Virus record (IMG/VR): IMGVR_UViG_2675903433_000022
From: a virus
Taxonomy: Duplodnaviria; Heunggongvirae; Uroviricota; Caudoviricetes
DNA length: 64,000 bases
Strand: one strand, 5' to 3'
Both the position numbers and the translations under genes were made by a program. This document shows positions 1,015 through 42,371 of this stretch, piece by piece. A model generated the notes under the pieces. The model had not been told where the DNA came from. It saw nothing but the letters and a program-made list of their open reading frames with translations, and made no database searches. Within the stretch, counting starts at the first letter, position 1. Every line of letters begins with the position of its first letter.

Positions 1015-2088
1015 ATGGCAAAAGGAAAATCCGCACTGGCACTTGCTCTGAAAAAGAAAATCGGTAGCAACGACGAAATTCAGAAAGTAACTCATTGGAT
1101 TGACACAGGCTTTCCTCCGTTAAACAAAGCGATTTCCGGTCGTTACGATGGCGGTTTCCCATGTGGTCGTATCGTAGAAGTATTCGGGCCACCAAGCGCG
1201 GGGAAAACCTTTTTGGCAACGGCAGCAATGATCTCCGCACAGAAACAAGATGGTCTGGCGGTATTCCTCGATCATGAGAACAGTTTTGACGTTGGCCTGG
1301 CTGTAGCCAATGGCCTGAACGCAGATGAGGATGACGGTCAGTGGGTATACAAGCAGCCTGACACCTTCGAAGACTCTGTAGAGTTGATCGGCACAATACT
1401 TAAATTGGTACGTGATGAAGAGCTTATCCCTGAATCAGCACCTATCTGTATCGTGGCTGACTCACTTGCGTCTATGGTTCCGAACTCCAAAGCCGAGAAG
1501 TTCGAAAAGATGGCTGAAGGCACTGCCAAAGACAAAGATCAGCTAAACATGAACGACAATACGGCACTGGCTCGTGCGACAAGTGCGAACTTCCCTACTC
1601 TGGCTTTGTGGGCACGCAAATACAACGCCTGCATCATCTTCTTGAATCAGGTTCGCACAAAAATCGGTGTAATGTTTGGCGACCCTACTACGTCGCCAGG
1701 TGGAGATTCACCGAAGTTCTACGCTTCTGTACGTATCCGTCTTGGTGCATCGGTGATGAAGGATGGTAAAGAGAAGATCGGCCAGGACGTAGGCGCAGAA
1801 TGCATCAAAAACAAAGTTGCACCACCGTATGGCAAATGCACCTGGAAATTCTACTTCGATCCTACTCGTGGCCTCGACGTTATCGAATCGCTCGTCGAGT
1901 ACATGCTGGAAGAAGGATACCTGCCAAAGAACGCCAGCGGGCGAGTTGAAATTGGTGACAAGAAATACACCAAATCGCAGATCGTCGAGATGTATCGGGA
2001 GAAGCCACTGGCTGAAATCATTGCGGCTTTGCAGGCAATCGACGACCGAAGAGCAAAAGACAACCCCACCGAGTCAGTAGAAGAGTAA
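1015..2088 (+). CDS. RecA-family recombinase (phage RecA/UvsX-like)
   Basis: Walker A GPPSAGKTF; block IIFLNQVRTKIGVMFGDPTTSPGG..KFYASVRIRL closely parallels RecA [41 protein letters not shown] RBS before the ATG. Confidence 0.85.
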   Translation: MAKGKSALALALKKKIGSNDEIQKVTHWIDTGFPPLNKAISGRYDGGFPCGRIVEVFGPPSAGKTFLATAAMISAQKQDGLAVFLDHENSFDVGLAVANGLNADEDDGQWVYKQPDTFEDSVELIGTILKLVRDEELIPESAPICIVADSLASMVPNSKAEKFEKMAEGTAKDKDQLNMNDNTALARATSANFPTLALWARKYNACIIFLNQVRTKIGVMFGDPTTSPGGDSPKFYASVRIRLGASVMKDGKEKIGQDVGAECIKNKVAPPYGKCTWKFYFDPTRGLDVIESLVEYMLEEGYLPKNASGRVEIGDKKYTKSQIVEMYREKPLAEIIAALQAIDDRRAKDNPTESVEE

Positions 2089-2095
2089 ACACAAG

Positions 2096-2119
2096 GCGTC
2101 CACAGGACGCCTTTTTTAT
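2096..2119 (+). terminator. rho-independent terminator (GGCGTCC-aca-GGACGCC + T run)
   Basis: GC stem-loop immediately after the recombinase stop followed by TTTTTTA. Confidence 0.6.
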
Positions 2120-2180
2120 CTCTTGAAAATATATAAGTACTTACTTATTATTTTCGCATAACAACCACATAGGAAAACAC

Positions 2181-2381
2181 ATGATCAAAATCTATCTATT
2201 GGCAGTAGCCACAGGCGTTTCAGTGGCTCTCATCTACGGTTTACTGGTTCCGTCGCTGATTTCTACCAAGAGTGATTTAGCCGTCATGTTTGGAGTTATC
2301 GTTGGTTTTGGTGCTCCTGTAATCGGTCTTATTGCTGGTCGTAAGTTTATCAACTCATTAATCAAAGCAAAGGGGAAATAA
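2181..2381 (+). CDS. small membrane protein (two predicted TM helices)
   Basis: 66 aa, two hydrophobic stretches; conserved GGAAAACACATG initiation context; 3 bp before the next gene. Confidence 0.55.
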   Translation: MIKIYLLAVATGVSVALIYGLLVPSLISTKSDLAVMFGVIVGFGAPVIGLIAGRKFINSLIKAKGK

Positions 2382-7172: not shown

Positions 7173-7504
7173 AGGCCATCCCATTTGCGCTGTTGTTCCT
7201 TTCTTCGATCGTTGTGGCCGACACCACTGTTTATCAGTGTGAAATGTCTGTAGCCGACGTTAAGAATGGCGCTCTTACCGACGTCATAAAAGCACCATAT
7301 GGAGCGATGGTCGTAGACAGCGGCGACCAGTTCTATGTTGTGCGTGACGATCGAGTGTTGTCATCCCCATATCTCACAAACCGTAATGGCAAATTAACCG
7401 GCGTCGGAGAAGACCACTTCGTATACAACAAATACAAGGGCTTCTATGGCGTTCACGCTTCTCAGCAAAGCTACCTTTTCGATGACTGCAAGGAGGTTGG
7501 ATAA
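7169..7504 (+). CDS. hypothetical secreted protein (N-terminal signal peptide)
   Basis: Track ORF 111 aa; hydrophobic N-terminus MKAIPFALLFLSSIVVA. Confidence 0.55.
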   Translation: MKAIPFALLFLSSIVVADTTVYQCEMSVADVKNGALTDVIKAPYGAMVVDSGDQFYVVRDDRVLSSPYLTNRNGKLTGVGEDHFVYNKYKGFYGVHASQQSYLFDDCKEVG

Positions 7505-7716
7505 TGGCATTAACACTGGCAGGTCTGGAAATCGAGAAAACAAGCGGCTACTGGCGTGCTAAGGGTTTCAAGCAGCCTGGCATTCTTGAGCGTCTGGAAC
7601 GTGAAGATGGGTATATCGTCCACCAGCGGCGTGAATGGCGTATGTACGATCCAGAAACAGGAAAACTGACTACAAAAGCCGGAACACTTTGGGGTCTGTT
7701 AAAGAAAATACACTAA
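7504..7716 (+). CDS. hypothetical protein
   Basis: Track ORF 70 aa; start overlaps the upstream stop. Confidence 0.45.
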   Translation: MALTLAGLEIEKTSGYWRAKGFKQPGILERLEREDGYIVHQRREWRMYDPETGKLTTKAGTLWGLLKKIH

Positions 7717-7763
7717 ATGCAAACTGACTGCGGCACGTTCCGCAGTCATATTTCATAGTCGTC

Positions 7764-8296
7764 ACCGCTGACAGCATACACAATCAACTACCGCTGATAG
7801 CATATCGAGAGTCTATCTCACCGCTCACAGCATACTTTACTCGATTTTTTACCGCTGACAGCATACTTAAGACATTGCATGAATAATGTGTACCGGTATG
7901 GGTATAACCAGAACAAAATTACCGCTGGCAGCATACGAATGTCTGACATATGCCATTAATTACCGCTGATAGCATATCCAAACAAAAATTCCTCAATAAC
8001 ACACCGCTGACAGCATACGTTATATCAGGGAACAGCAGGCAATAAATGCCTTTCACTACAAGCAATCAGCGCAATAGCAATAGAATGTTAGTGAGCGCAA
8101 ACCTATATGGAATGCACTCTTCGAGGTTAGTAACCACTGGGGAGGTATGACAGAGCATTGAGTGGTGATAGATGATTTACCGCTCACAGCATACGTTCAT
8201 CTCACTATACCGCTGGTAGCATATCTTTAACCGTTCACAGCATACTTTTCAGAAAAATAGCCGCTGATAGCATACATTTCACCGCTGACAGCATAT
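7764..8296. repeat. iteron array, 12 copies of ~16 bp ACCGCTGACAGCATAC-like repeat (incA-like)
   Basis: Copies near 7764, 7790, 7820, 7851, 7921, 7962, 8003, 8179, 8209, 8230, 8260, 8281 with minor variants; abuts the 3' end of the RepA-like gene. Confidence 0.85.
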
Positions 8297-9390
8297 CAAA
8301 GCAGTTTGAGACTATTGGAAAGGATCTCAATCATCTTGATATTTTCAGGCGTCAAATTCTGCGAAAGTTCGGTTATCTTATTGATAATGTTCTGTTTGGC
8401 ATCAATTTCCCCGGCTTTCTCATCTGGTTTTTTGGGTTCGATGTCTTCAGGTTTTGGCGGTGCGACTTTGAGTTTTGGATTGCGGCTGTGAATCTGGATA
8501 TAGATCGACCGCCCACGCTTAATCTCGCTGTATTCGAGATAGCCCAAATCTTGGAGAGCTTTTAAGCCGTTGCGTATAGTCTGATTCTGCGAGCTGACAT
8601 TCCTGCTACTCAAATTGAGTCGCGCACGCAATCGAGCAAGCGATACCGGCGCAGGCTTGGTTGGAAGACTTTCGATGAAGGTGTACAGAGCCTGTGCTGT
8701 TTCTTTGCGTGGTAGCTTATTGATAACCTTTAACTGCAAAAGAACCTTATGGTCAAAGCGATATAGTTCGGCCAGCTTCGGTTCTGCATAGAACACCACC
8801 GTATCTTTCTGCTCGTTGTAGTCCACGCTATTGATGAGGTGCACCATCAGAAGCGAGATCTTGTTAGAGCCGTCGACGTTCTTTTCTTCATACGTTCTCT
8901 GGAAAGACAGAGTTGTACGCATGATCTTCAAAAGACTGTTTGTAAGCCGGTCGCGGAGTGTTTTGCGGATCTGTGACGATGGATAGCCACAAAACTTCGC
9001 AAATTTCGTGATGCTTAACTCGACACGACCGTTAGGTTCGCCGTATTCTGCCAGCGAACGCACAACGCCCACCCACGTTTTGAAATCATGATCCATGTCG
9101 AGACGAGGACCGGTTATCTTGATATCGGAATAGCCTTCAGAACGGGCTACTTCGAGCTGAACAAGCTCCTTTGAAGCATCGATCTCATTTGGCTTGTTAC
9201 GCTTGCTGTATTTTGTCCCCTTGAGCGTGGGCACGAACAACCCCAGCCGCATCAACGCAATTGGTTGGACTGTATTGTTGCTATTAGGGACAAGTTCCCC
9301 TGTGTACAATTCAAGGGAACCTTCTTCAAAGTTGTCGAGATTATCTTCTACTTCTTTGTTATTTTTACCTTTTTTATTTTTTGTGGACAT
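8296..9390 (-). CDS. iteron-flanked replication initiator (RepA-like)
   Basis: Track ORF 8296..9510; likely true start is the ATG at 9390 (MSTKNKK...) because the longer ORF runs into the upstream iterons; call rests on context, not motifs. Confidence 0.7.
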   Translation of the reverse strand: MSTKNKKGKNNKEVEDNLDNFEEGSLELYTGELVPNSNNTVQPIALMRLGLFVPTLKGTKYSKRNKPNEIDASKELVQLEVARSEGYSDIKITGPRLDMDHDFKTWVGVVRSLAEYGEPNGRVELSITKFAKFCGYPSSQIRKTLRDRLTNSLLKIMRTTLSFQRTYEEKNVDGSNKISLLMVHLINSVDYNEQKDTVVFYAEPKLAELYRFDHKVLLQLKVINKLPRKETAQALYTFIESLPTKPAPVSLARLRARLNLSSRNVSSQNQTIRNGLKALQDLGYLEYSEIKRGRSIYIQIHSRNPKLKVAPPKPEDIEPKKPDEKAGEIDAKQNIINKITELSQNLTPENIKMIEILSNSLKLL

Positions 9391-9410
9391 GTGGACACCT
9401 TTGTCATTCA

Positions 9411-9512
9411 ACCGCTGACAGCATACTTGATTTGCCGCTGGCAGCATACCAAAAACAGTTGGTAGCATACGGCGAACCGTTGACAGACTATCAATTACCG
9501 CTGGCAGCATAC
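9411..9512. repeat. iteron array, 5 copies (incC/origin-proximal set)
   Basis: Same ACCGCTGACAGCATAC family (two degenerate) immediately upstream of the RepA start. Confidence 0.8.
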
Positions 9513-9552
9513 ATGAACATGGCTTCAGGCCAGTCGTGGCGCGGCTTACAGC

Positions 9553-9625
9553 GATCGGGGATCTTATTTGATCTATACAAGGATCTATCTATGGATCTCT
9601 TTATTAGGATCTATCCTGTGGATAT
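9553..9625. other. candidate plasmid replication origin core: six GATC sites in heptamer-like repeats plus DnaA-box-like TGTGGATAT
   Basis: GATC at ~9553, 9560, 9570, 9582, 9594, 9608 followed by TGTGGATAT (8/9 match to TGTGGATAA) at ~9617; adjacent to the upstream iterons as in P1 oriR. Confidence 0.6.
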
Positions 9626-9711
9626 GTGAATAATTAAAACAGGCATTTACTACCTTCGGCGCACCTGGTGGGTTATCGTTGCCTCGGCTAACAATCACAG
9701 AAAAATGACAT

Positions 9712-10356
9712 ATGGATCTAAAACGCACGCGCTGGGTTCGTCGTCTTGAAGACGGCTCCTACACTATCGAATCAAATTCCAACCTGAATAAGCAGAAGTT
9801 GCTTTGTGACATCTGCGGTATAGCGGCGAAGTGCCCGATCTACGAAACCAGAATTAAACTTGATAAGGCTGGTGTGAATTTTCATTTAAACAGTTGCATC
9901 AGGTACGTTCCATTGCTCGCATTTCGTAAACCGATCATCGGATTAGATGCACCCTACTTCAACACACTCCGTTCAGGTGTGACGTGGCGAGATCGTTTAT
10001 CACCAGACAAGCTGATTTGCCTTGTATCCGCAGACACAGGGAAAATCATCCGTTTTGGGAAAGTAGACAAGGTTTACTCAGGTCCAGTAGACGAAATGTT
10101 GCGGAAACACAGCCGGTTTAATCATCTCTGTATGGGTGGTGAGAAAATCGAGAAGGTAGAAGAAGTGATCCGCAAATCCTACGGACACTTCCTGAACAAA
10201 GATAGCCTGCTCACCGCAATCTACATCAGACATGTAAAACGTGAGTTCGACCTCGAATACCACAGTGAAGAAGAACTTAACCTTGTTGACCCACGTCCAA
10301 AAGCTGGCGTCATAAGCATAAACGCAGCGCGTAAAAAGCCCACTGACGCGCTGTAA
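9712..10356 (+). CDS. hypothetical protein
   Basis: Track ORF 214 aa. Confidence 0.55.
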   Translation: MDLKRTRWVRRLEDGSYTIESNSNLNKQKLLCDICGIAAKCPIYETRIKLDKAGVNFHLNSCIRYVPLLAFRKPIIGLDAPYFNTLRSGVTWRDRLSPDKLICLVSADTGKIIRFGKVDKVYSGPVDEMLRKHSRFNHLCMGGEKIEKVEEVIRKSYGHFLNKDSLLTAIYIRHVKREFDLEYHSEEELNLVDPRPKAGVISINAARKKPTDAL

Positions 10357-10611
10357 CCCTCCAGATCGCATATTGGCGTAGATAGAATCTACGCCTCCTC
10401 AAAATAGCTCTCATAGCGTTTTACAGTGATCCTGTCTTATTTTTAGTCATACAGACAAGCAAAGTTGCGCCACAATAAATAGGTATATACTTACTTATAA
10501 ATTTTGTATATTAAGGCGCTCGTTTTCATTCCTAACATACCGTTATGCATAGTTGTTTACCTTCTCATTGCTCTTAGAATTTGTATCAAAATAACCACAA
10601 AGGAAAAACAC

Positions 10612-11697
10612 ATGACTTTGCCTTACGGCGTCATTTCTGACTGCCACTACCACAAATGGGATGCGTTCTCCACGACGAACGCTGAGGGGCTTAACTCCAG
10701 ACTTGAAATACAGTTGGAGGCAACGAAAGAAGCAGCCATCGCCATGAAGAAGGCCGGTTGTAAGTACATGTTGGTTGCCGGTGATACATTTCACGTCCGA
10801 GGAACTGTGTCCCCTTCTGTTTTGCATTACGTAACTGAAACGTACAAGTGGATTATCAACGAGCTTGATCTGACAGTAGTAATGCTGGCCGGTAATCACG
10901 ATCTTGAAACCAACGATTCAGTATATAGCGCCAACGCAGCAGCATCGCTGAGTTCTATCGGCGTGGTAATCGTATGTGGCAAGCGCCCACACTCAATAAA
11001 AATTGGTGATGTGACTGTCCACCTGATTAGCTGGCGTAACAATCATGCGGAGCTTATCAGCGATCTGAAAGCATTACGTAAGAGCGTAGAAGGTGATAAT
11101 CATGACGTTGTTATCCATACATCCATTAACAAAGCCATTCCAACAATGCCTGACGTCGGTATCGATGCGCAGGAGTTAAAGGATATCGGCTTTCGTCTCG
11201 TGCTTAGTGGGCATTACCACAACCACAAAGAGGTCATTCCTGGAGTTATCAGTGTCGGTGCGCTGACCCATCAAAATTGGGGAGATGTTGGATCTCTGGC
11301 TGGTTACATGATCGTAAACCCGGACGGCAGTTTCAGTCACTACGAAACCAGTGCGCCTAAATTCATTAACCTGGAAGATGATGTTGCTGATGACCAAATT
11401 CGCGGCAACTACGTGCGTTTCCGTGCCGTAATTGAGAACGATGAAGAAGGCATTAAGTACCAGAACATCCTCAAAACAATGGGTGCAAAAGGTGTCGTGT
11501 GCAACTTCATCCGTAAGTCATCAATGATGGAAGGGACAGCCAGCACAACTGAAACCAGCAAAATCGATAGCCTGGGAGAGTCGGTATCTGCTTATTGCAA
11601 GATTGTCCACGATACTGACGGCGGATTTGATCTGAGCAAGTTGGATATTTTGTGTCAGGAAATCCTCACCGAAGCGGAGAGTTCGGAGGCTGTGTGA
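10612..11697 (+). CDS. SbcD/Mre11-like metallophosphoesterase nuclease
   Basis: Track ORF 10504..11697, start moved to ATG 10612 after AAAGGAAAAACACATG; calcineurin-like motifs DCHYH, GDTFH, GNHD, GHYHNH. Confidence 0.8.
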   Translation: MTLPYGVISDCHYHKWDAFSTTNAEGLNSRLEIQLEATKEAAIAMKKAGCKYMLVAGDTFHVRGTVSPSVLHYVTETYKWIINELDLTVVMLAGNHDLETNDSVYSANAAASLSSIGVVIVCGKRPHSIKIGDVTVHLISWRNNHAELISDLKALRKSVEGDNHDVVIHTSINKAIPTMPDVGIDAQELKDIGFRLVLSGHYHNHKEVIPGVISVGALTHQNWGDVGSLAGYMIVNPDGSFSHYETSAPKFINLEDDVADDQIRGNYVRFRAVIENDEEGIKYQNILKTMGAKGVVCNFIRKSSMMEGTASTTETSKIDSLGESVSAYCKIVHDTDGGFDLSKLDILCQEILTEAESSEAV

Positions 11698-11926
11698 AGC
11701 AAAGTCGTTATGGGAGCTTTCGAGACTTTGCCATCACGATGAAAAGACTTGAACGAGGCCAGACGGTGATGTTTCACAAGCCCTACCCGCCACAAGGAAA
11801 TCCCGTAGCGTTTTATCTTGGAAGGTTAACCAGAAAAGGCGTATTGAGGCGCAGATCCTTCCCGGCGCATACGGAGTTCAGATTGAAAGAAGGCCAAAAA
11901 CTAACACACGGTATCAGAGGTGTTAT

Positions 11927-13843
11927 ATGAAGTTTTTAAAACTCCAGGTTGAGAATTTTATGGCTATCGCCAGCGCGGAGGTCGAGTTAGATCAGCGTGG
12001 TTTAGTGCTCATTCAGGGTGTTAATAGTGATGATAGTTCCGCATCAAGCAATGGCTCTGGAAAGTCAACGCTAATGAATAGCCTGATGTGGTGTCTTTAT
12101 GGCGAAACAGCTCATGGTGTGAAGGGTGACGATGTGTTGTCTACCGACCATGAAAAGAACTGTCGTGTTGCAGTAACCATCGAGGATGAAGGCAAGAGAT
12201 ACGCAATCATTCGTCACCGTAAACACAAAGAGTTCAAAAATCGTCTTATCGTTCGTGGTGAAGATGGCGATATGACGAAAGGCAAAGATGCGCTGACGCA
12301 GGAGTTCGTTGAGCGTCTGATCGGTGCATCTAAAGAGGTTTTCATGGCTTCCATCTATGCGAGCCAAGAAGCTATGCCAGATTTACCTGGAATGTCCGAC
12401 AAAAACCTCAAAACCATCGTAGAAGAAGCCGCTGGCGTTGACAGACTGACACGCGCCTACGCTATTGCTCGTGAGCGAGCTAATGCAGCTGCCGCACGTA
12501 TGGATGTGGTTAAAACCAAATTGGAGTCGACAATCTCGACCATTGAGGCAACACAGTCAGAAATTGAGTCAGCGAAAGCCTCCTCTGAATCATGGGAACA
12601 AGAGCGTTCTAAACGTTATGACGATGCCCTGGCTGGGCTGGCCAGTGCCGAAGTTGAGTTAACGGAAGTTGAACTTGAGATCCGCACTCTTCCCGAACAG
12701 ATCCGTGATACCGAGAAGGCAATCGAAAGTGAGCGCAAAAAGTTAGCCTCAAAAGAAGAACATGACGCCAAGTTGCTCAAAGTTCGTGGTGCGATAACTG
12801 ATATTCGGGCAAGCATCAAAGCTACAGAAAATAGTCAGGCTGATGCAATGAACCGCGCGCGTAATTTTAAGACCAAAGCAGAAGAGGTTGGTACTAAAGT
12901 GGGATCACCATGCCCTACTTGTGGCAAAGCCTACTGCGAAGAAGATCTATCAACGGTGAAGGAGAATTTCATTGAACAAGCACGTCAGGAAATTGGTCAG
13001 GCGAAGACACTTGCAGAGGCAATGGCTAAACACAAAACGAATCTTGAGAAAGCGTTAAGCATTGAGTCTGCCCTTGTTAAAACGACACCTGATGTAACGG
13101 CTATCATTGCCCGGATTGAAGAGCTTACGAAACAACTCTCATCTTTGCGTCATCGTGAGAAGGAGGTTGTTGCTATTGAGTCTCTTGTGACTCGTGCTCG
13201 TACTGAGGTCGATCGTATATCAAAAGAGATTAATCCGTTTATTGCTCTTATCGCCAGACACGAAGATAACCTGGTATCCAGTAAGTCTACCTTCAAGTCC
13301 TTAAAAGATGAGTTGAAGGCTATTCAGGAACAAACGTTGCTATTGGAAAAAGCTCGTCAGGTCTACTCTCCTGCCGGGGTGCGTTCTCATATTTTGACGT
13401 CTGTTACGCCTTTCCTGAATACACGCACTGCCGAGTATCTCAATACGTTGTCTGACGGGAATATTACTGCTGAGTGGTCGACGATGGATGTCACTAAAAA
13501 AGGTGAGTATCGCGACAAATTCAACATTAGTGTGCAGAAGAAAGGTTCAAGTAAGTCGTTCCAGACCCTCTCTGGTGGTGAGAAGCGGAAGGTTCGCATT
13601 GCGTGTTCTTTGGCATTGCAGGATCTGGTTAGTAACCGGGCGAGTAAAAACATCGATTTGTTTATCGGCGACGAAATTGACGATGCACTCGATACAGCCG
13701 GTCTTGAACGCCTCATGGGTATTCTGGAGTCCAAAGCTCGCGAGCGAGGTACTGTGCTGATTATCTCCCATAAAGAGATGAAGTCATGGTTCCGGGAAAC
13801 TATTACGCTGGAAGTTAAAGAGGGGCGCAGCTATGTCGTTTAA
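11927..13843 (+). CDS. SbcC/Rad50-like ATPase
   Basis: Walker A GSGKST, central coiled coil with zinc hook CPTCGK, signature LSGGEKRK, Walker B DEIDDALD. Confidence 0.85.
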   Translation: MKFLKLQVENFMAIASAEVELDQRGLVLIQGVNSDDSSASSNGSGKSTLMNSLMWCLYGETAHGVKGDDVLSTDHEKNCRVAVTIEDEGKRYAIIRHRKHKEFKNRLIVRGEDGDMTKGKDALTQEFVERLIGASKEVFMASIYASQEAMPDLPGMSDKNLKTIVEEAAGVDRLTRAYAIARERANAAAARMDVVKTKLESTISTIEATQSEIESAKASSESWEQERSKRYDDALAGLASAEVELTEVELEIRTLPEQIRDTEKAIESERKKLASKEEHDAKLLKVRGAITDIRASIKATENSQADAMNRARNFKTKAEEVGTKVGSPCPTCGKAYCEEDLSTVKENFIEQARQEIGQAKTLAEAMAKHKTNLEKALSIESALVKTTPDVTAIIARIEELTKQLSSLRHREKEVVAIESLVTRARTEVDRISKEINPFIALIARHEDNLVSSKSTFKSLKDELKAIQEQTLLLEKARQVYSPAGVRSHILTSVTPFLNTRTAEYLNTLSDGNITAEWSTMDVTKKGEYRDKFNISVQKKGSSKSFQTLSGGEKRKVRIACSLALQDLVSNRASKNIDLFIGDEIDDALDTAGLERLMGILESKARERGTVLIISHKEMKSWFRETITLEVKEGRSYVV

Positions 13844-39079: not shown

Positions 39080-40180
39080 TCACACTGCGCGGAATGCGAT
39101 TTCGCCAGGTATTACTTCACCTTGCCAATACATTTGGGCAGCAACGCGATCTGCGAGGTCACGATAAATAGCCGTAAATTCGCTATCTGGACGACTAATA
39201 ACGGTTGGTGTTCCGTTATCCAGATCTTCACGAAGAGAGATATGAAGTGGCATTTGGCCTAACAACTGCGTGTTGTATTTCTCGGCCAGTTTCTGTGCGC
39301 CACCGGTGCCAAAAATTGGCTCGTGATGACCGCAGTTACTGCAAATATGCATACTCATGTTCTCGACAATACCGAGCACCGGAACCTCGACTTTCTCGAA
39401 CATCACAATGCCTTTTTTCGCATCGATCAACGCGATGTCCTGCGGCGTAGTTACCACAACCGCACCAGTTACAGGAATGTTCTGCGCCAGCGTCAATTGA
39501 ATATCACCAGTGCCCGGCGGCATATCGAGAACGAGATAGTCCAGATCAGGCCATAGAGTTTCCTGCAACATCTGCATTAACGCCTTGCTCGCCATCGGAC
39601 CACGCCACACCATCGCATTGTCGTCAGTTACCAGATAACCAATTGAATTGGTTGCCAGTCCATGAGACATAATCGGTGCCATGTGAGTACCGTCCGGTGA
39701 GGTTGGACGTTGGTTTTCCGCGCCAAGCATGGTTGGAATTGATGGCCCGTAGATATCGGCATCCAAAATACCAACTTTCGCACCTTCAGCAGCCAACGCC
39801 AGTGCCAGGTTTACCGCCGTGGAGGATTTACCAACGCCGCCCTTGCCTGAGCTGACGGCGATAATGTTCTTAACGCCATTAATGCCTGGTTGGTTTTTGA
39901 CGCGCTTAAGCGTGGCAATGTTGTACGACAGCTTCCAGTCGATAGCCTTTGCGCCAGTGATACGGAGCAGATCACCACTACATTGCTCTTTCAGGTCTTC
40001 AAAAGGCTTATTCCACACGAAAGGCATGATTAGTTCGACATGCAGTGTGTCATCCATCAACGCAACATGGTGTAACGCTTTAAGCGTAGTCAGGTTGTGT
40101 TTCAGGGTTGGGTGCTGAAAATTAGCCAGCGTACCGGCTACCATTGCTCTCAGGGCATCCGGCGATTTGGACTCGCTCAT
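39080..40180 (-). CDS. apbC: Fe-S cluster carrier ATPase Mrp/ApbC
   Basis: 366 aa; deviant Walker A SGKGGVGKS; reads as near full-length enterobacterial Mrp by recall. Confidence 0.9.
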   Translation of the reverse strand: MSESKSPDALRAMVAGTLANFQHPTLKHNLTTLKALHHVALMDDTLHVELIMPFVWNKPFEDLKEQCSGDLLRITGAKAIDWKLSYNIATLKRVKNQPGINGVKNIIAVSSGKGGVGKSSTAVNLALALAAEGAKVGILDADIYGPSIPTMLGAENQRPTSPDGTHMAPIMSHGLATNSIGYLVTDDNAMVWRGPMASKALMQMLQETLWPDLDYLVLDMPPGTGDIQLTLAQNIPVTGAVVVTTPQDIALIDAKKGIVMFEKVEVPVLGIVENMSMHICSNCGHHEPIFGTGGAQKLAEKYNTQLLGQMPLHISLREDLDNGTPTVISRPDSEFTAIYRDLADRVAAQMYWQGEVIPGEIAFRAV

Positions 40181-40337: not shown

Positions 40338-42371
40338 ATGACCCAAGTCGCGAAGAAAATTCTGGTGACGTGCGCGCTGCCGTACGCTAACGGCTCAATC
40401 CACCTCGGCCATATGCTGGAGCACATCCAGGCTGATGTCTGGGTTCGTTACCAGCGAATGCGCGGCCACGAGGTTAATTTCATCTGTGCCGACGATGCCC
40501 ACGGTACGCCGATCATGCTGAAAGCACAGCAGCTTGGTATCACACCGGAGCAGATGATTGGCGAAATGAGTCAGGAACACCAGACTGATTTCGCAGGCTT
40601 TAACATCAGCTATGACAACTATCACTCGACGCACAGCGAAGAGAACCGTCAGTTGTCTGAGCTTATCTATACTCGCCTGAAAGAGAACGGTTTTATTAAA
40701 AATCGTACCATCTCTCAGCTGTACGACCCGGAAAAAGGCATGTTCCTGCCGGACCGTTTTGTAAAAGGCACCTGCCCTAAATGTAAAGCGCCAGATCAAT
40801 ACGGCGATAACTGTGAAGTCTGCGGCGCGACTTACAGCCCGACTGAACTGATCGAGCCGAAATCGGTAGTTTCTGGTGCTACGCCGGTAATGCGTGATTC
40901 CGAACACTTCTTCTTTGATCTGCCTTCTTTCAGCGAAATGTTGCAGGCATGGACCCGCAGCGGTGCGTTGCAGGAGCAGGTGGCAAACAAAATGCAGGAG
41001 TGGTTTGAATCTGGCCTGCAACAGTGGGATATCTCCCGTGACGCACCTTACTTCGGTTTTGAAATTCCGAACGCGCCGGGCAAATATTTCTACGTCTGGC
41101 TGGACGCGCCGATTGGCTACATGGGTTCCTTCAAGAATCTGTGCGACAAGCGCGGTGATACCACCAGCTTCGATGAATACTGGAAGAAAGACTCCACCGC
41201 CGAGCTGTACCACTTCATCGGTAAAGATATTGTTTACTTCCACAGCCTGTTCTGGCCTGCCATGCTGGAAGGCAGCAACTTCCGCAAGCCGACCAACCTG
41301 TTTGTTCATGGCTATGTGACGGTGAACGGCGCAAAGATGTCCAAGTCTCGCGGCACCTTTATTAAAGCCAGCACCTGGCTGAATCATTTTGACGCTGACA
41401 GCCTGCGTTACTACTACACTGCGAAACTCTCTTCGCGCATTGATGATATCGATCTCAACCTGGAGGATTTCGTTCAGCGCGTGAATGCCGATATCGTGAA
41501 CAAAGTGGTTAACCTGGCCTCCCGTAATGCAGGCTTTATCAACAAGCGTTTTGACGGCGTGCTGGCAAGCGAACTGGCTGACCCGCAACTGTACAAAACC
41601 TTTACTGATGCCGCTGAAGTGATTGGTGAAGCATGGGAAAGCCGCGAATTTGGTAAAGCGATTCGTGAAATCATGGCGCTGGCTGATCTGGCTAACCGCT
41701 ATGTCGATGAACAGGCTCCGTGGGTGGTGGCGAAGCAGGAAGGACGCGATGCCGATCTGCAGGCGATTTGCTCTATGGGCATTAACCTGTTCCGCGTGCT
41801 GATGACGTACCTGAAACCGGTACTGCCGAAACTGACTGAACGTGCAGAAGCATTCCTGAATACAGAACTGACCTGGGATGGTATCCAGCAACCGCTGCTG
41901 GGCCATAAAGTGAATCCGTTCAAGGCACTGTATAACCGTATCGATATGAAACAGGTGGAAGCACTGGTGGAAGCATCCAAAGAAGAAGTGAAAGCCACAG
42001 CTGCACCGGTAACTGGCCCACTGGCTGACGACCCGATTCAGGAAACCATCACCTTTGACGACTTCGCCAAAGTTGACCTGCGTGTGGCGCTGATTGAAAA
42101 CGCGGAGTTTGTCGAAGGTTCTGACAAACTGCTTCGCCTGACGCTGGATCTCGGTGGTGAAAAGCGTAATGTCTTCTCAGGCATCCGTTCCGCTTATCCA
42201 GATCCACAGGCACTGATTGGTCGTCACACCATTATGGTGGCTAACCTGGCTCCGCGTAAAATGCGCTTCGGTATCTCTGAAGGCATGGTGATGGCTGCTG
42301 GCCCCGGCGGGAAAGATATCTTCCTGTTAAGCCCGGATGCTGGTGCTAAACCTGGCCACCAGGTTAAGTAA
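40338..42371 (+). CDS. metG: methionyl-tRNA synthetase
   Basis: Track ORF 40209..42371, true start ATG 40338 (MTQVAKKIL); HIGH-type motif [14 protein letters not shown], zinc knuckles CPKC/CEVC and C-terminal tRNA-binding domain. Confidence 0.95.

Follow-up and report, generated by a model that had tools for sequence, protein, structure and literature searches.

The 64,000-nucleotide stretch of tailed-phage DNA analysed here (Caudoviricetes; IMG/VR record IMGVR_UViG_2675903433_000022; the whole stretch is referred to below as the window) contains a minus-strand gene bracketed by two groups of 16-bp repeats, and the question raised by this locus is how, and in which form, the phage genome is maintained in its host. 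A sequence-only reading had proposed the incA-repA-incC-oriR arrangement of P1-type replicons and replication as a low-copy plasmid. According to our analysis, the region 7764-9633 is very probably the plasmid-maintenance (prophage) replicon of a phage-plasmid of the SSU5 supergroup, an iteron-controlled replicon of the theta type belonging to the P1 RepA/RepFIB family. This view is carried by the parts of the locus and their statistics, by the homology of the initiator RepA, by the DNA homology of the origin core and by an exclusively plasmid location. The SSU5 supergroup of phage-plasmids has been described previously (PMC7969092; PMC8085198; 10.1101/2025.09.12.675607). The P1/RepFIB-type iteron replicon is itself a known, textbook architecture, and this one is present and annotated in more than 100 public plasmid and phage records. 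Architecture and mechanism were established for P1 and RepFIB decades ago and no new principle is added here; the interest of the locus is mainly practical, for typing, curing and copy-number variation.

The repeats were searched over the whole window with ACCGCTGACAGCATAC, allowing up to three mismatches, and compared with dinucleotide-preserving shuffles of the same DNA. This search gave 15 matches, all on the plus strand and all inside 7764-9512, against a mean of 0.44 and a maximum of three in the shuffled windows; relaxing it to four mismatches added the copies at 9455-9470 and 9476-9491. At the relaxed threshold the earlier count of 12 copies downstream and five upstream of the gene is recovered, two of the five upstream copies being degenerate. 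The five origin (incC-like) iterons carry 0, 2, 4, 4 and 1 mismatches and follow each other at 23, 21, 21 and 21 bp, about two turns of the helix. The control (incA-like) iterons are irregularly spaced, at 21-176 bp, and the final one shares one nucleotide with the stop codon of repA. An iteron-free gap of 160 bp (8019-8178) interrupts the control array; since neither strand of this spacer gives a significant RNA fold (z -1.4 and -0.8) and it is largely missing from the Klebsiella relative pJN2-26, we treated it as filler. In phage PhiR41_1, control iterons 1-3 are absent owing to an 87-bp deletion from iteron 1 to iteron 4 (window 7764-7850). Natural variants thus have 9 or 12 control iterons, a difference that could affect copy number.

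The minus-strand reading frame between the two groups extends from 9510 to 8296, and translation probably starts at the ATG at 9390. This start was chosen because it is the one used in the PhiR41_1 annotation, because many public assemblies are rotated so that they start precisely with this ATG, because a Shine-Dalgarno-like AAGGTG lies 5 nt upstream of it, and because the alignment with P1 RepA begins at residue 32 of the resulting protein. The 404-aa RepA that starts at 9510 in the RefSeq/PGAP annotation was rejected, its additional 40 residues being only translated origin iterons (MLPA...MLPT...MLPA). The RepA-like gene proposed earlier does encode a protein with Rep-family similarity, as residues 118-239 match Pfam Rep3_N (WH1) with 37.5 bits (cut-off 22.4; E 3.9e-9) and BLASTP gave 46% identity to P1 RepA over 278 aa (E 4e-86). 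As judged by alignment, this identity settles the family membership of RepA. The second domain, Rep3_C (WH2), had no match in RepA at E<=0.01 in the Pfam search, and the homologous proteins of P1 and SSU5 score just under its cut-off (20.5 and 21.0 versus 21.1). The NCBIfam search returned no match for RepA.

Beyond the upstream iterons lie a GC-rich block, a cluster of GATC sites and two DnaA boxes, in this order. The GC-rich block is nearly identical in P1 oriR and in pJN2-26, and is recognisable in IncFIB origins. The six clustered GATC sites listed by the sequence-only reading are confirmed within 59 bp (9553-9611) and form the densest GATC cluster of the window; when the 283 GATC sites of the window were placed at random, six per 60 bp was reached in just 6 of 5000 placements. 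The GC content of 9550-9649 is 34%, and the GATC-repeat region is presumed to be the DNA-unwinding element and the control site for Dam and SeqA. As for the DnaA-box-like sequence, the single box reported earlier at 9617-9625 is real (TGTGGATAT on the plus strand, ATATCCACA on the other), and a second box of the same quality, which overlaps it by one base at position 9625, had been missed. A tandem pair of weaker DnaA-box-like sites straddles the repA ATG, reading GTGTCCACA and ATGTCCACA on the repA strand; the equivalent position in pJN2-26 has GTATCCACA (8/9), and P1 has CTATCCACA between incC and repA. In P1, two DnaA-box arrays flank the origin (reviewed in PMC4980987). The pair at the repA start is a candidate for such a second array on the repA side of the iterons and may have the same function. 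The candidate repA promoter lies where P1 has its annotated PrepA (TTGCTA-18-TAGGAT). No site matching the IHF consensus WATCAANNNNTTR was found near the replicon, and the window contains no RNA families (Rfam, gathering thresholds) and no tRNAs (ARAGORN). Taken together, all parts of the proposed incA-repA-incC-oriR architecture agree with the annotated P1 record in order, in orientation relative to repA and in spacing.

The distribution of the replicon fits the proposal that the element replicates as a plasmid. In PLSDB, 143 plasmid records, of about 105-115 kb, contain it; of 5426 complete E. coli genomes, 120 have it, always in a plasmid record and never in the chromosome. With 121 plasmid records (mostly from E. 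coli, about 105-115 kb and predicted non-mobilizable) the 2-kb region shares 98-99.5% identity, and with phage records, including PhiR41_1 (record host, E. coli MG1655), it shares 98-99%. The window is collinear, apart from a few indels, with the 109-kb plasmid p09EL50 of E. coli O104:H4, which has genes for capsid, portal, terminase, tail, DnaE, a DnaB-like helicase, ligase and NrdAB, and whose single annotated plasmid-type initiator is this RepA. The coordinates of the features are collected in Table 1.

Table 1. Features of the replicon, its surroundings and the compared origins (window positions unless stated otherwise; a point marks features without strand).
Feature	Position	Strand	Remarks
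repA, predicted iteron-binding replication initiator, 364 aa	8296..9390	-	Pfam Rep3_N, BLASTP
Control (incA-like) iteron array, 12 copies of 16-bp ACCGCTGACAGCATAC	7764..8296	+	All oriented like the origin iterons
Control iteron starts	7764, 7790, 7820, 7851, 7921, 7962, 8003, 8179, 8209, 8230, 8260, 8281	+	
Origin (incC-like) set, 5 iterons	9411..9512	+	Starts 9411, 9434, 9455, 9476, 9497
Conserved GC-rich block GCCAGTCGTGGCGCGGC...	9529..9552	.	Between iterons and GATC repeats
AT-rich GATC-repeat region	9553..9615	.	GATC at 9553, 9560, 9570, 9582, 9594, 9608
Two tandem DnaA boxes, ATATCCACA and TTATTCACA	9617..9633	-	9617-9625 and 9625-9633; each 8/9 to TTATCCACA
Tandem TGTGGACA TGTGGACA, candidate DnaA sites	9383..9398	+	Two 7/9 DnaA-box-like sites straddling the repA ATG
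Candidate repA promoter in origin iterons 1-2	9423..9452	-	-35 TTGGTA (9452-9447), 18-bp spacer, -10 AAGTAT (9428-9423)
Inverted iteron-like sequence TTCGCTGGCAGAATAC inside repA	9043..9058	-	12/16 match, 13/14 core; not counted as a functional part
Bidirectional terminator-like hairpin	7725..7748	.	9 pairs including 6 G-C; between the convergent gene 7504-7716 (+) and the control array
Flanking gene, 70-aa protein	7504-7716	+	'Putative Cre-associated protein' in SSU5
Flanking gene, 214-aa hypothetical protein	9712-10356		No Pfam or NCBIfam match
Phage-type N6-adenine DNA methyltransferase, Dam family, 197 aa	24746..25339	+	PF05869, TIGR01712
Duplicated origin cores of SSU5	780-1000 and 1155-1411		Positions in the compared stretch
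Duplicated origin cores of pHCM2	about 1600-1820 and 2084-2232		Positions in the compared stretch

Two of the features in Table 1 stand at the margin of the replicon. The terminator-like hairpin would be a suitable replicon boundary on the side of the control array. The inverted iteron-like sequence inside repA is possibly due to chance, for which we estimated an expectation of about 0.16 per region.

By homology with P1 and RepFIB, a scheme can be proposed for binding, promoter use, handcuffing, methylation dependence and copy number. RepA monomers would bind the five phased origin iterons and host DnaA would bind the tandem boxes, possibly also the weaker pair at the repA start; RepA and DnaA would then jointly open the AT-rich GATC-repeat region, where the host helicase would be loaded. 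RepA would also repress its own promoter, which would lie within the origin iterons. Copy number would be kept low by the 12 downstream iterons, through titration of RepA and through their RepA-mediated pairing (handcuffing) with the origin, and the same array would set the incompatibility specificity of the element; a low copy number is likewise what the replicon family would lead one to expect. In FIB replicons, the downstream iteron block alone displaces a plasmid and the upstream block does not (PMC11983097). The six GATC sites would make initiation dependent on adenine methylation and, once the origin has fired, would allow SeqA to sequester it in the hemimethylated state; what is said here on SeqA is general knowledge on origin control. 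Work attributed to Abeles and Austin in 1987 and to Abeles et al. in 1993 is said to have found that GATC methylation is required for the function of P1 oriR, and that hemimethylation is used for control after initiation.

Some observations weigh against the identification of the locus as a replicon of this kind. As mentioned above, two of the five origin iterons have four mismatches. All 12 control iterons are direct, while six of nine are inverted in P1, so the pairing geometry may differ between the two. The candidate repA promoter agrees with the sigma-70 consensus at only 7 of 12 positions, and a generic sigma-70 scan reported no minus-strand promoter within the origin iterons; because of this weak match and the silence of the scan, it is listed only as a candidate. 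Sequence searches of the PDB with RepA alone and with a seven-member family profile found no solved structure, and a single-sequence AlphaFold2 model of RepA was unusable (mean predicted local distance difference test score, pLDDT, of 39), so that it is the Pfam match by itself that points to a two-winged-helix fold. P1 has parAB-parS next to its control iterons; in contrast, no par operon lies beside this replicon, and a ParA-like ATPase is encoded on p09EL50 about 32 kb from it, outside the window. Finally, no published experiment on this particular replicon was found.

It may be asked whether the locus would not be better filed as a RepFIB (IncFIB-type) replicon acquired by a phage backbone, working by the same mechanism and with P1 only as a cousin, and on this point the evidence seems to us evenly balanced. 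RepA is 50-53% identical to the initiators of plasmids that MOB-suite types as IncFIB, as opposed to 46% for P1 RepA, and homologues at about 50% identity occur in more than 5000 PLSDB plasmid records. Its core, about residues 30-309, is homologous to both P1 RepA and RepFIB RepA; residues 310-364 form a Pro/Glu/Lys-rich linker followed by a predicted helix, and in the alignment this C-terminal tail is common to the RepFIB, SSU5 and pHCM2 initiators and missing from P1 RepA. Moreover, the homologous pHCM2 replicon is typed IncFIB, and typing tools list the SSU5 replication genes as IncFIB (preprint 10.1101/2025.09.12.675607). By sequence and predicted domain layout, then, the nearest relatives of RepA are the RepFIB/IncFIB initiators, with P1 RepA as a tail-less member. 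On the other hand, such a filing is a matter of labelling and not of mechanism, P1 RepA and RepFIB RepA being one family with a common origin core; the origin core of the window is nearer to P1 than to the sampled IncFIB plasmids, in its tandem DnaA boxes abutting the GATC repeats and in its GCCGCGCCACG block; and MOB-suite assigns the replicon to rep_cluster_488, not to IncFIB. Its name in PlasmidFinder is possibly IncFIB(H89-PhagePlasmid).

The Dam-like methylase noticed elsewhere in the window by the sequence-only reading also holds up, and raises the question of its possible action at the origin. The protein matches PF05869 (Dam; 2.2e-38, 132 bits, cut-off 28.1) and TIGR01712 (phage N6-adenine methyltransferase; 114 bits, cut-off 97.05), has an NPPY motif at residue 76, and its collinear gene in p09EL50 is annotated as phage N-6-adenine-methyltransferase. 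Recognition of GATC by this enzyme is hypothetical. Escherichia, Klebsiella and Salmonella hosts have a Dam of their own. Because these enterobacterial hosts already methylate GATC, a role of the element's Dam at the origin is speculative, possible but not required. We consider it rather unlikely that the enzyme acts on the six origin GATC sites as a life-cycle switch and that, additionally, variation of the control array (12 iterons here, nine in PhiR41_1) and swapping of RepA/iteron alleles tune copy number and let related phage-plasmids co-reside. If this were the case, rapid GATC methylation, or methylation under limiting host Dam, would leave less time for SeqA sequestration and increase the plasmid copy number, for instance at induction or after infection.

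A very improbable alternative is that the RepA/iteron locus is the lytic (vegetative) replication origin of the phage, or serves both lytic replication and maintenance. The element encodes its own DnaE, DnaB-like helicase, toprim protein, ligase, RNase H and NrdAB; such a phage replisome needs some origin, and no other was identified in this analysis. Nevertheless, runaway lytic replication would call for the opposite of 12 titrating iterons and a SeqA-type GATC control. To our knowledge, all characterised relatives with a large control array (P1 oriR, RepFIB, mini-F) are copy-limiting maintenance replicons, and P1 has a separate lytic replicon. In addition, the related SSU5-like phage-plasmid Cyrano, which has a different RepA allele, is present at about 5.5 copies per cell (PMC9928086). 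The notion that the 16-bp repeats flanking repA are phage att or recombination sites rather than initiator-binding iterons, suggested by the pJN2-26 record (MZ779062), in which two homologous repeats are labelled attR and attL (1378-1397 and 2648-2667), has virtually no chance of being right and was rejected, as there are 17 copies rather than two, their arrangement around a Rep3-family initiator is exactly that of P1, whose record annotates RepA binding, the five origin copies are phased at two helical turns, the element was never found integrated in the 5426 E. coli genomes, and the labels almost certainly arose when an automatic prophage finder mistook direct repeats for att sites.

As a plasmid-maintenance replicon, the locus would decide the maintenance, the copy number and the incompatibility partners of an SSU5-like phage-plasmid. 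About 2% of complete E. coli genomes contain such elements, and resistance genes are sometimes found on them. The 12-iteron array, as the likely determinant of incompatibility and copy control, could be a direct handle for curing or typing such elements.

Other parts of the window deserve a comment. Directly beyond the origin, in 10504-13700 and farther on (collinear with p09EL50 58380-52533), there are genes for a metallophosphoesterase and for an AAA ATPase with a double-strand-break repair annotation, together resembling an SbcCD pair; nrdA/nrdB, thymidylate synthase and dihydrofolate reductase come next. The element thus has its own large module for nucleotide metabolism and replication. 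Farther along, apbC (39080-40180, minus strand) and metG (about 40338-42371, plus strand) are divergent on the phage-plasmid, as on the E. coli chromosome. Compared with the chromosomal locus, the segment 39080-42371 shows about 90.5% identity in each of the 5426 complete E. coli genomes; 215 records match it at 95-99%, and 223 of the matching places are on plasmids. The segment looks like a housekeeping locus that was captured, either from a related species or long ago.

Among known systems, P1 offers the closest comparison part by part. Read in the same orientation, the P1 RefSeq record has nine incA iterons, repA, five incC iterons with PrepA inside, five Dam sites and a DnaA-binding site. 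The last incA iteron (copy 9) overlaps the repA stop by one base, as the last control iteron of the window does, and the five incC iterons are spaced at 21-22 bp compared with 21-23 bp in the window. The last origin iteron and the first GATC are 41 bp apart in the window and 40 bp apart in P1, and the GATC spacings are 7/10/12/12/14 bp (six sites) and 7/10/11/23 bp (five sites), respectively. In a pairwise DNA alignment, the succession of GC-rich block, GATC repeats and tandem DnaA boxes is nearly identical to P1 oriR, the aligned stretches being GCCAG.CGTGGCGCGGC, GATC.GGGATCT and GGATCTATCC.GTGGATA.TGTG.ATAA; the DnaA boxes of the window align with the annotated DnaA-binding site of P1 oriR, TTATCCACATTATCCACT. 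Both replicons also have a DnaA-like box between the iterons and repA. In contrast, the iterons do not align: the window has GTATGCTGTCAGCGGT and P1 has GATGTGTGCTGGAGGGAAA, with only the ...TGCTG... core in common. Because of this difference a distinct incompatibility specificity is expected, and the replicon is not placed in IncY (the P1/P7 group), as its iteron consensus differs from that of P1 at most positions and its RepA is just 46% identical. The control arrays differ too, with 12 direct iterons and a 160-bp gap in the window and nine iterons (three direct, six inverted) in P1, and the RepA of the window has an extra C-terminal tail of 55 aa and an N-terminus 12 aa longer. Both elements are phages that lysogenise as a plasmid, and P1, like the window element, encodes its own adenine methyltransferase (Dmt).

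The RepFIB replicons (P307, F, pO157, pColV REPI) have initiators that share the C-terminal tail and the identity level given above. In these replicons, rep has iterons on both sides, those upstream being associated with the origin and those downstream having a controlling role, and there is a DnaA site (PMC11983097). Their GATC repeats, AGATCC...GATCCCCG(G)ATCGC, are placed upstream of the iterons as in the window, and the iteron sequences differ. Klebsiella phage pJN2-26 and IncFIB plasmids have the origin core, notably AGATCCCCG(G)ATCGC, upstream of their iterons as well, and iteron sequence is lineage-specific across the window, pJN2-26 and IncFIB plasmids despite this common core. The setting is also different: the window replicon (rep_cluster_488) is on a non-conjugative siphovirus-type phage-plasmid backbone, while RepFIB (IncFIB) is found on F-like conjugative plasmids.

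SSU5, pHCM2 and Cyrano (pLF82) have the same backbone locus, RepA family and overall layout as the window. However, the RepA proteins of SSU5 and pHCM2 are only 49% and 50% identical to that of the window, respectively, and their iterons, AACCACTGTAGAGAGTAG, are unrelated in sequence. These two elements have iterons in both orientations downstream of repA, unlike the all-direct control array of the window, and upstream of repA their origin core (DnaA-like box, GATC repeats and iterons) is tandemly duplicated, at roughly 375 bp, whereas the window has a single core. In the repA-proximal copy of SSU5 and pHCM2, several GATC sites have degenerated into GAACC or GACCC. The two neighbouring genes of the replicon share 86% and 94% protein identity with their SSU5 counterparts, as opposed to 49% for RepA, so that the replicon cassette was evidently exchanged, or diverged much faster, within a conserved backbone. 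Thus, with conserved flanks and dissimilar RepA and iterons, the backbone locus holds alternative RepA/iteron cassettes, or 'alleles', which fits the conserved phage genes and variable plasmid genes described for this group of phage-plasmids (PMC7969092).

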